Position numbers: made by a program. From contig NZ_JAPSLI010000001.1 of the NCBI RefSeq assembly GCF_031180975.1, positions 463,197 through 527,196 of the forward strand: a stretch of 64,000 nt of DNA. Reading direction: 5' to 3'. Shown piece by piece: positions 48,001-51,000 of the stretch (position 1 is the stretch's first letter; each line of letters begins with the position of its first letter). This stretch comes from Microbacterium sp. Its GTDB lineage: Bacteria > Actinomycetota > Actinomycetes > Actinomycetales > Microbacteriaceae.

Positions 48001-51000
48001 CGTGGACATCCTGTTCGCCCCAGCGCCGGAGGAGATCTATCCGGAGGGCTTCGCGACCAGCATCCATGTCGCCGGCCTGACCGACGTGCTCGACGGTGCC
48101 AGCCGCGGCGCGCATCACTTCGACGGCGTGGCCACGGTCGTCACGAAGCTGTTCGGCATCGTGCGCCCGGACGTCGCATTCTTCGGTCAGAAGGATGCCC
48201 AGCAGGTTCTCGTGGTGCGCAGGGTGGTGCGTGATCTGAACCTCGACGTCCGCATCGAGGCCTGCCCGATCGCCCGCGAGCCGGACGGCCTCGCGATGAG
48301 CTCGCGCAACGTGTACCTCGACGCCGCCGCACGGCAACGGGCCGTGTTCCTCAGTCGCGCGCTCGACGCCGCGCAGGCGTTGCACGACAGCGGCGAGCGC
48401 GACGCCGACGGCATCCGTGCGGCGGCCGCCGCCGTGCTCGACGAGGCGGGCATCGCGCCCGAGTATCTCGAGCTGCGGGATGCCGAGACGCTGGCCCCTG
48501 TCGCGGACACGAGGCGGGACACGCTGCTCGCCGTCGCCGCCCGCGTGGGAGCCGCCCGCCTGATCGACAACCACCTCCTGAAGGGCGACGCCTGATGCGA
48601 CGCACCATGCTGAAGTCGAAGATCCACCGCGCCACCATCACCGGCAGCGACCTGAACTACGTCGGATCGATCACCATCGATCCCGACCTGCTGGAAGCGG
48701 CCGACATCCTGCCGCACGAGCAGGTTCACGTCGTCGACGTGGACAACGGCGCCCGGTTCGTGACGTACACGCTGGAGGGCGAACGGGGGTCCGGAGTGAT
48801 CCAGGTCAACGGCGCGGCCGCTCGGCTGGTGCACACCGGCGACACCGTCATCGTCATCTCCTATGCGGAGTACTCGCGCGAGGAGCTCTCCGAGTACGAG
48901 CCGGTCGTCGTGCACGTCGACCGCAGCAACCGCATCATCCGCGTCGATGACGCCGTGGGCGAGCTGGTGACCTCGTGAGCACGCACGCCGCCCCCGCGCA
49001 GCGCATCACCCTGCGGGATCTCGCCGCGAAGAAGGATGCCGGCGAGCGCATCGTCATGGTCACCGCGTACGACCACCCCAGCGCGCAGATCGCTGAGGAG
49101 GCCGGCGTCGACATCGTGCTGGTCGGCGACTCCGCAGCGATGACCGTGCTCGGCTACGACAGCACGGTGCCGGTGACGGTGGACGAGATGCTGATGCTGA
49201 CCGCGGCGGTGCGGCGGGGACTCACCCGTCCGCTGCTCATCGGTGACCTGCCGTTCGGCTCGTACGAGGCATCCGACGAGATCGCGATCGCCACCGCGCA
49301 ACGCTTCGTGAAGGAGGCCGGCGTCGACCTGGTCAAGATCGAGCGCGGCGGCACGACCGTCGATCGCGCCCGTGCGCTCGTGAACGCGGGCATTCCGGTC
49401 GTCGGGCACGTCGGGCTGACGCCGCAGACCGCCACCGCGCTGGGCGGCTATCGGGCGCAGGGCCGCACCGCCGAGGCCGCTGTCGCGGTGATCGACGACG
49501 CCCTCGCCCTGCAGTCCGCCGGGGTGTCGCTGCTCGTGATCGAGGCGGTGCCGTCCGAGGTCACCGCCGCGCTCATGCCGCTGCTCGACATCCCCGTCAT
49601 CGGCATCGGCGCCGGAGCGGATGCCGATGGGCAGGTGCTCGTCTTCCACGACCTGCTCGGCATGTACGACGGTGCCGCCGCGAAGTTCGTCAAGCGCTAC
49701 GCCGACCTGCGGGGCGCCGCGCTCGAGGGCGTGGCGGCATACACGGACGAGGTGCGGCGCGGGGTGTACCCGGCTCCGGAACACCGATATCGGATGCCGG
49801 AGGGCGAGGCGGCGCGGCTGGCGGAGTTGCTGCGCAAAATTCCGTGACCAAACCGTTGCATTCGTTACCTCGCCGTTATACAGTGATCGCACGGTGAATG
49901 TTTGCTGTGGCATCCACCGCATGTGATTGCAGGACACTCTTGGTGCAAGGGACAAGGGCCGGCCGGAAGCCTCTCCGACCGGCCCTTACTGCGTCCAGGC
50001 TTGGATCCGATCTCGCCGCTACGCTGTGAGCATGACCGATCGTCAGCTCGCCGTCGAAGCCTGGGAGAGCCTCTTCCGCGCCCAGCACGAGCTGTTCACG
50101 TCGATGGCACGCGACTTCGAGGCCACCGCGCTCAGCCAGGCCGAGTACGACGTGCTGCTCACCGTCACCCGCGCTCCCGACATGTCCGCGCGACTGCGCG
50201 ACGTCACGGCGAAGATGCTCATCAGTCAACCCAGCGTCTCGCGCCTGGTCGACCGGATGGTCGCCCGCGGCCTGGTGACGAAGGCCGCCGACCCCCTAGA
50301 CCGGCGCGGCGCGGTGATCACCGCGACGGATGCCGGTGCCCGTGCCTTCCGTCAGCTGGCGACCGTCCACGGGCGCTCCATCGCCGAGCACATGTCCCGT
50401 CTCACGGACGACGAGCTGCGCGCCCTGCTCGAACTGACCGACAAGCTCCGCGGCAAGTAGTCCGAGGCGCACGCTTCGGGGTCGACACGCCACATGTCGG
50501 ACGGATGCCGTGAGATCGTCCGGCATCCGGTGTGTCGACCCCCAGAACGTCGCCCCCAGCGAGCGCCGTGCCCACGCCCGGGCAGACTGGTGAGGTGACA
50601 CCCCCCTTCGACCTCGCCCGGATCGGCGACGGCCTGGCCTTCGCCGCCGCGCTGGACGACCTGGTAGCCGCGCTGGACCGGGACACCGCCGCCGTGGTGA
50701 GCGCGCCGCCCGGCACCGGCAAGACCACCCTGGTGCCGCCACTGCTCGCCTCGCGATCCTCCGGCCGGGTGATCGTCACACAGCCGCGCCGCGTCGCCGC
50801 CCGCGCCGCCGCCCGGCGACTCGCGCAGCTGGACGGCTCCCCGCTCGGCTCCCGCGTCGGGTTCACGGTCCGCGGCGAGCGCAGCGTCACCCCCACCACC
50901 AGGATCGAGTTCGTCACCGCCGGTGTTCTGCTGCGACGGATGCTGGATGACCCGGGTCTCGAGGGTGTGGACGCGGTCGTCGTCGACGAGGTCCACGAAC

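Follow-up and report, generated by a model that had tools for sequence, protein, structure and literature searches.

A predicted small structured RNA encoded beside a MarR-family regulator gene in Microbacterium and related Microbacteriaceae

The stretch of DNA analysed here, referred to as the window, comprises 64,000 nucleotides (nt) of a Microbacterium sp. genome (contig NZ_JAPSLI010000001.1, positions 463,197 to 527,196 of the forward strand). Its GC content of 70.6% is that of high-GC DNA of the Microbacterium type. Within the window, the genes panC, panD and panB are followed by a gene for a MarR-family regulator (marR) and by one for an HrpB-type helicase (Table 1). The element in question lies in the 184 base pairs (bp) that separate panB from marR, where GC content falls to 0.51 (49844-49890) and 0.52 (49891-49955), compared to 0.71 for the window. 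An initial annotation, made from the sequence alone, had noticed promoter hexamers, a GTG-initiated open reading frame (ORF) with two adjacent Cys codons, TTGCA/TGCAA arms, a GC hairpin and a separate -10 element for marR, all of which are present in the sequence where they had been placed. Two interpretations had been offered: a cysteine-sensing attenuator adding read-through into marR, or an independent small RNA (sRNA) or micropeptide. Comparative analysis bore out the independent sRNA, taking into account that the element has its own conserved promoter and terminator-type hairpin, covarying helices at both flanks, no conserved ORF, and a variable position and orientation relative to marR. 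Judging from these sequence features, positions 49844-49993 very probably form a complete gene in their own right, encoding a small structured non-coding RNA.

Table 1. Features of the region around panB and marR, and tandem copies of the predicted RNA in related loci
Feature	Position	Strand	Remarks
panC	47744-48595
panD	48595-48978
panB	48975-49847
Putative sRNA promoter block	49844-49890	+	Nearly invariant in 12 Microbacterium orthologues though the upstream gene differs
-35-like hexamer TTGCAT	49856-49861	+	Read from the sequence; 17-nt spacer to the -10
Direct repeat CGTTACC-N4-CGTTATA	49863-49880	+	11-bp-spaced
-10 hexamer TACAGT	49879-49884	+
Discriminator	49885-49890	+	Variable
Predicted non-coding RNA, about 100 nt	49891 to about 49993	+	Covariance model match 49891-49997, 120.8 bits, E 6.5e-26
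P1 hairpin	49892-49900 with 49911-49919	+	One A.C mismatch in the window copy; 6 of 8 pairs changed on both sides
Micro-ORF (M)NVCCGIHRM*	49894-49926	+	GTG at 49894; stop TGA at 49924-49926
P1 loop UUUGCUGUGG	49901-49910	+	Invariant
Near-invariant core GCAUGUGAUUGCAGGACACUCUUGGUGCAAGGGACAA	49920-49955	+	Candidate recognition surface
P3 GC-rich terminator-type hairpin	49954-49987	+	Stem GGGCCGGCCGG/CCGACCGGCCC, loop AAGCCUCU
marR transcription unit	50020-50460	+	-10 TACGCT at 50020-50025; ATG at 50032; stop at 50458-50460
MarR-family gene (marR)	50032-50460	+	Pfam MarR_2/MarR
HrpB-type helicase gene	50532-53150
Tandem sRNA copies	L036 7165-7501; L042 1011-1313; L100 592-1967; L114 1880-2190; L116 5050-6022		Related loci

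The element was compared with about 130 related loci. Twelve Microbacterium loci were fetched by way of the MarR protein, which is only 69-84% identical there, and a block of about 150 bp (approximately 49844-49995 in the window) proved to be almost invariant. A different gene lies upstream in each locus, panB being found only in the window, and conservation is lacking in the 40-50 nt that separate the hairpin from marR. A metagenome scan with a 20-base pattern taken from the core matched at least 120 stretches, all but a handful of which are true members. Judging from protein names, the metagenomic variants belong to many species of the genus Microbacterium. Through more distant MarR orthologues we also reached loci of Leifsonia, Agromyces, Microcella and Cryobacterium, where a covariance model (R1) built from 56 distinct sequences recognizes the RNA at 88-97 bits near marR. 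The family ranges over at least five genera of Microbacteriaceae, these four and Microbacterium. R1 finds exactly one copy in the window and one in each related locus (85-131 bits), apart from second copies that occur in tandem on the same strand, 0.1-1.3 kilobases (kb) away, in five loci. In one of the five, L116, one copy is standard and the other, a variant of reduced length, carries a CUCUG-GUG-CAGAG hairpin. No second sRNA copy, shared promoter repeat or dispersed repeat was found within the 64-kb window.

The boundaries of the block resemble those of a transcription unit. Following GTTA, the -10 hexamer of the sRNA reads TAnnnT in 123 of 123 members, represented by eight versions. It is followed by 5-6 freely variable nt, after which the sequence is conserved again from (C)ACGG onwards, corresponding to 49890/49891. 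An invariant TAnnnT, a variable stretch of 5-6 nt and a conserved (C)ACGG are what characterizes a -10 hexamer followed by its discriminator and the start of transcription, in agreement with the start that had been predicted near 49891. The promoter core CCGTTAYC-N4-CGTTATAnnnT is invariant across genera, being present also in Leifsonia, Agromyces, Microcella and Cryobacterium, and its direct repeat falls within the promoter spacer. At the other end, conservation ceases a few bases past the GC hairpin. As a separate observation, an 11-bp-spaced repeat such as CGTTAYC-N4-CGTTATA is of the kind bound by OmpR-type proteins, which may be a coincidence. A protein of about 230 amino acids whose only domain is an OmpR-type Trans_reg_C DNA-binding domain is encoded next to the sRNA in Cryobacterium and near it in Microcella (L134, 2992-3693; L139, 638-1330; L140, 2093-2785).

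We then turn to RNA structure. Covariation was scored on a MAFFT alignment (A3) of 56 sequences, with pairing partners slid by 1-3 columns and 500 column shuffles as controls. Upstream of marR orthologues, where the initial annotation had suggested looking for conservation and covariation, this analysis revealed a conserved block with two covarying hairpins, P1 and P3. Taken together, 14 of the 19 pairs in P1 and the terminator display two-sided compensatory changes. The cells of the alignment are paired in 96.5% of cases, compared to 29-49% when partners are slid, and none of the 500 shuffles matched the observed covariation values. Examples of two-sided changes in P1 are GGUGAAUG/CAUCCACC, GGUAGUUG/CAGCUACC, GGUGAUCG/CGAUCACC and GCGUCAGUUG/CGGCUGACGC, the last of which is, along with GCACCGGCUG/CGGUUGGUGC, a variant from other genera. 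The strong GC hairpin of the initial annotation corresponds to P3, in which compensatory changes affect 8 of 11 pairs and pairing is kept in 98% of cells. It is precisely with P3 that the conserved block comes to its end. Concerning the small stem that had been drawn over the ORF (UGC-u-GUGG/CCAC-c-GCA), it can indeed form in 96% of cells, but the changes that preserve it are all one-sided wobble changes, C/U or A/G, facing a GUGG that never varies. The helix with true two-sided covariation is P1, which that stem excludes, and the stem may represent an alternative conformer.

What lies between and within these helices hardly varies. The P1 loop bases UUUGCUGUGGC are essentially invariant in all five genera, as is AUGUGAUUGCAGGACACUCUUGGUGCAAGGGA between P1 and the terminator, and AUGUGAUUGCAGGACACUCUUGGUGCA of the core is unchanged or nearly so in 27 representatives of the five genera. 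A small hairpin, P2, can be drawn in the core in two mutually exclusive ways, UUGCA/UGCAA (49927-31 with 49944-48) or CUCUUG/CAAGGG (49937-42 with 49946-51). Because the core has no variation, the two are indistinguishable. We also noted an invariant AUGUGA (49921-49926), a start codon directly followed by a stop codon, in all five genera; no recognizable Shine-Dalgarno sequence accompanies it, and it is probably meaningless.

The direction of the RNA could be read from the helices and from one rearranged locus. Within P1 and the terminator, 47 cells hold G.U and 19 hold A.C, and in Cryobacterium L134, where the whole unit is inverted relative to marR, the promoter is kept on the same side of the RNA. 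Both observations indicate the plus strand. An RNA from the minus strand was considered, as it folds better when taken alone (-52.6 versus -45.8 kcal/mol), and was ruled out by the G.U and A.C counts, the position of the promoter and the inverted Cryobacterium unit.

We examined how the element is placed with respect to marR. The marR gene is leaderless: in 63 of 63 loci, TAnnnT precedes the start codon by 6-8 nt, and in the window TACGCT precedes the ATG by 6 nt, consistent with the separate -10 that had been assigned to it. In each of the five genera, a marR orthologue adjoins the sRNA or lies in its vicinity. The distance varies: marR is directly downstream in 56 loci, on the same strand but 1.3-7.6 kb from the sRNA in 24, and, among loci whose sequence continues for at least 2.5 kb downstream, missing from the first 2.5 kb in 7. 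This variable placement, along with the inverted orientation in Cryobacterium, suggests that the RNA is an independent gene staying in the neighbourhood of marR and not a marR leader. At many Microbacterium loci, the hairpin is separated from the ATG by only about 25 nt, so that the -35 region of marR falls in the 3' arm of the hairpin. Packing this tight suggests that read-through, transcriptional interference or coupling is possible.

In those distal loci that were inspected, a convergent DUF2207 gene intervenes and ends at the sRNA hairpin. It encodes a membrane protein of about 600 amino acids and lies between sRNA and marR, about 0.1-1.9 kb downstream of the sRNA (L017, L020, L026, L032, L034, L041 and others). 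The gene is convergent with the sRNA and divergent from marR, and it too is leaderless, TAGGCT preceding its ATG by 6-7 nt. Facing this gene, the sRNA hairpin may terminate transcription from both directions. A conserved AGCCTA, considered as a candidate shared operator, turned out to be the -10 of the leaderless DUF2207 gene.

From these patterns we infer transcription, the exact transcript ends, action in trans, base pairing and a regulatory link to MarR, along the following lines. A housekeeping-type actinobacterial promoter with the -10 TACAGT would start transcription at about 49891. The P1 hairpin would bury the 5' end of the RNA, and would be followed by an almost invariant core of about 35 nt, largely open and with a small internal hairpin, until the GC-rich terminator hairpin ends the transcript at about 49990. 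The RNA would act in trans, its invariant core and P1 loop recognizing partners, most likely messenger RNAs (mRNAs) by base pairing. Together with the neighbouring MarR regulator it would form a conserved functional pair, in which one controls the other or both serve one response. In tandem loci, some transcripts probably read into marR because the U tail of the hairpin is weak, which would be a side effect and not the main function. To this reading as a whole, a stand-alone non-coding RNA gene whose product is a trans-acting riboregulator functionally paired with MarR, we assign a probability of about 0.55.

Several results weigh against this proposal. A consensus scan for promoters and terminators called neither at the sRNA unit, the scan being E. 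coli-style with thresholds ill-suited to actinobacterial signals. The tail of P3, UUACUGCG, is a weak U tail that was missed by a scan for U-tract terminators. As the plus-strand fold of the single sequence has a z-score of only -2.5, that is, 2.5 standard deviations better than shuffles, the case from the single sequence alone is weak; comparison across loci puts the unit far beyond chance. In public sequencing runs labelled 'RNA?' (contaminated or metagenomic), the element occurs only in low-depth contigs that span the promoter and the flanks. The sRNA is not enriched over its neighbours in these contigs, which are uninformative as to expression or transcript ends, and we dropped the runs as evidence of expression on account of the low depth, the coverage of promoter and flanks, and the lack of enrichment. 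The promoters of marR and of the DUF2207 gene were found to have no operator in common with the sRNA promoter. When the 64-kb window was scanned for targets of the invariant core, the best duplex (-41.7 kcal/mol) was inside the range obtained with shuffled cores (-37 to -43.1 kcal/mol). Finally, the approximately 30 (27-32) consecutive fixed nt exceed what a base-pairing seed usually needs, which points to a protein or ligand as a partner that fits about as well. Two potential pairings with marR itself were rejected. Full-length duplexes with the marR mRNA were long and meaningless, and an apparent match of the terminator loop to marR codons 9-14 (GGGAGAGCCUCUUCC) shows no covariation when the loop varies and reflects conservation of the WESLFR peptide.

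The alternative that we regard as most worthy of attention, although on the whole we think it somewhat unlikely, is an RNA that binds a protein or a ligand without pairing to any mRNA. Its invariant core and P1 loop would contact a protein, such as an RNA-binding regulator, RNA polymerase, MarR or a helicase, or a small molecule, and the RNA would serve as a decoy, cofactor or sensor. The 27-32 consecutive invariant nt, along with an invariant loop of about 11 nt, are kept across five genera in which the MarR partners are only about 47-60% identical, and this exceeds the conservation typical of a seed. Mutually exclusive pairings are present, namely P1 versus a stem between its loop and its 3' strand, and the two options for P2. 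The failure to find a base-pairing target in the window is also in line with such a function. On the other hand, the architecture is very simple, consisting of two small hairpins and a terminator; a complex tertiary fold is unsupported, the invariant positions giving no covariation signal; and marR is the only partner gene that is consistently linked. A more specific version, which we hold to be unlikely, is that the P1 loop and positions 49920-49952 of the core, about 45 invariant nt in total, form the binding pocket of a new class of trans-acting sensor or cofactor RNAs with a small-molecule or protein ligand. P1 versus GUGG/CCAC would then be the switch, and RNA and MarR a module common to the family.

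We also considered a leader or attenuator acting in cis independently of any peptide. Longer marR transcripts would then begin with the element, and the level of marR expression would depend on how often transcription stops at the GC hairpin, termination there being regulated. The direct placement upstream of marR on the same strand, in the 56 loci as well as in Leifsonia, Agromyces and Microcella, would agree with this, as would the weak U tail and the physical overlap of the two units where only about 25 nt separate hairpin and ATG. However, marR has its own conserved leaderless promoter in every one of the 63 loci, a distal or missing marR is difficult to reconcile with a leader, as is the inverted unit of Cryobacterium, and folding revealed no competing anti-terminator that would pair with the hairpin's 5' arm. 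A cis-acting leader is therefore quite improbable in our estimation.

The cysteine-sensing attenuator of the initial annotation supposes that scarcity of cysteine makes ribosomes pause at the two Cys codons, which would alter formation of the hairpin. UGC UGU is present in every member, and the ORF is found in the window and its closest relatives. Among 106 distinct family members whose ORFs were analysed, 27 keep the peptide VNVCCGIHRM and about 13 more have a similar ORF of 9-10 codons. The others do not retain it: 24 of the 106 have no start codon in the Cys-Cys frame, and most of those remaining start at UUG, with a 1-nt indel that removes the stop codon and carries the frame across the terminator (LFCCGSYRHVIAGHSWCKGQGPV...). 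The ORF is thus lost in most members, and start, frame, stop and length are all unconserved, which argues equally against the micropeptide that had been suggested. UUUGCUGUGGC is fixed at all three codon positions throughout the 106 members, with a single U>A change (Cys to Ser) and no synonymous change, indicating that the constraint is on nucleotides and not on the peptide. The GTG lies 3 nt inside the predicted RNA, where a start codon at the very 5' end would be expected of a leaderless ORF, and has no Shine-Dalgarno sequence; most members have GUA or another non-start codon there. Moreover, P1 and the ORF share bases, and the changes by which P1 covaries take no account of codon structure.

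Polycysteine attenuators are known from mycobacteria as leaderless short ORFs, the first ORFs of cysteine-metabolic operons, which mask the ribosome-binding site downstream (Canestrari et al., bioRxiv 10.1101/834739). Resemblance to the element at marR extends to an actinobacterial host, two adjacent Cys codons near the predicted 5' end and RNA structure downstream. In contrast to these systems, the ORF here is unconserved and not strictly leaderless, and the gene that follows is a leaderless regulator and not a cysteine-metabolism operon. Since marR is leaderless and has its own promoter, there is no ribosome-binding site to sequester. We judge the ORF to be an incidental reading of invariant RNA bases in the P1 region and not a gene, and consider a cysteine attenuator with read-through into marR, or a micropeptide, extremely unlikely. 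The broader proposal of the initial annotation, that two transcription factors in the window are under Cys-codon control, fails at the marR locus, and a supposed second cysteine attenuator is thereby removed as a false lead. The case illustrates how a Cys-Cys micro-ORF may seem 'conserved' only because the underlying RNA bases are invariant. The other leader to which the proposal referred is an ORF at 23718-23819 on the plus strand, MTTNARPMSAQEANGTAGMMMAGRVGMCCRMCC*, in which two Cys-Cys pairs closely precede the stop codon and AATAAT lies 7 nt upstream of the ATG, giving it a leaderless appearance. Unlike the element at marR, it looks like a plausible polycysteine leaderless short ORF.

A purely DNA-level element, for example a repeat or a cluster of operators bound by MarR or some other factor, seems extremely unlikely. 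The invariant CGTTAYC-N4-CGTTATA repeat and TTGCA-N12-TGCAA palindrome do resemble protein-binding sites, but compensatory changes in the helices maintain complementarity and not sequence, G.U-type changes favour one strand (47 versus 19), and each locus has a single copy whose distance from the TAnnnT -10 is fixed, with no dispersed repeats in the window.

We searched for known relatives of the RNA. An Rfam 15 scan of the whole window at gathering thresholds, including 6C, SRP, 6S, tmRNA and actinobacterial motifs, gave no matches. At E<10, the window element and the Leifsonia copy returned only chance-level matches of at most 21 bits, against thresholds of at least 45, and a scan of eight related loci detected only tRNAs. 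No description of the RNA was found by literature searches by sequence and keyword, nor in the motif-discovery papers NAR 2017 (224 candidate RNAs) and NAR 2024 (50 genomes). As the Rfam search proposed with the initial annotation gave no family match, and taking the sequence comparisons into account, the RNA most likely represents a new family of bacterial small RNAs. The covariance model recovers it cleanly, which makes it a candidate for a new Rfam family.

Small RNAs encoded beside the gene of their own transcription factor include Mcr11/AbmR in Mycobacterium tuberculosis, and OxyS/OxyR, GcvB/GcvA and SgrS/SgrR in enterobacteria. The RNA predicted here is similar to these in being a predicted stand-alone gene of about 100 nt with its own promoter and a terminator-type hairpin, kept beside one transcription factor gene over long distances. 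It differs in that there is no sequence or Rfam relationship, the partner is of the MarR family, the arrangement is mostly tandem rather than divergent, and no shared operator was found. 6C RNA (RF01066) is a widely conserved actinobacterial sRNA with two hairpins bearing C-rich loops and an intrinsic-type terminator, and it acts without Hfq. Short length, simple hairpins, highly conserved unpaired nt, a terminator-type hairpin at the end and presumably action without Hfq are features common to both, whereas the RNA at marR has the loop UUUGCUGUGG and an invariant linker of mixed sequence, and the Rfam scan that included 6C was negative.

To our knowledge, the actinobacterial regulatory RNAs described so far come very largely from Mycobacterium, Streptomyces and Corynebacterium, with very few from other genera, and we found none described for Microbacteriaceae in the literature searched. 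Members of this family are plant pathogens, endophytes and common soil and rhizosphere bacteria, as well as frequent laboratory contaminants. An RNA that is conserved about as strictly as housekeeping RNAs in at least five genera, linked to one MarR-family regulator and duplicated in some species, could provide an entry point into Hfq-independent RNA regulation in Microbacteriaceae.

Concerning the genes upstream of the element in the window, the stop and start codons of panC, panD and panB overlap, and panB ends 9 nt before the -35 of the sRNA. No terminator of their own is visible for the pan genes. Transcripts from them may enter the sRNA gene and stop at the sRNA hairpin. This linkage of pan genes and sRNA is specific to the Microbacterium sp. 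genome from which the window was taken.

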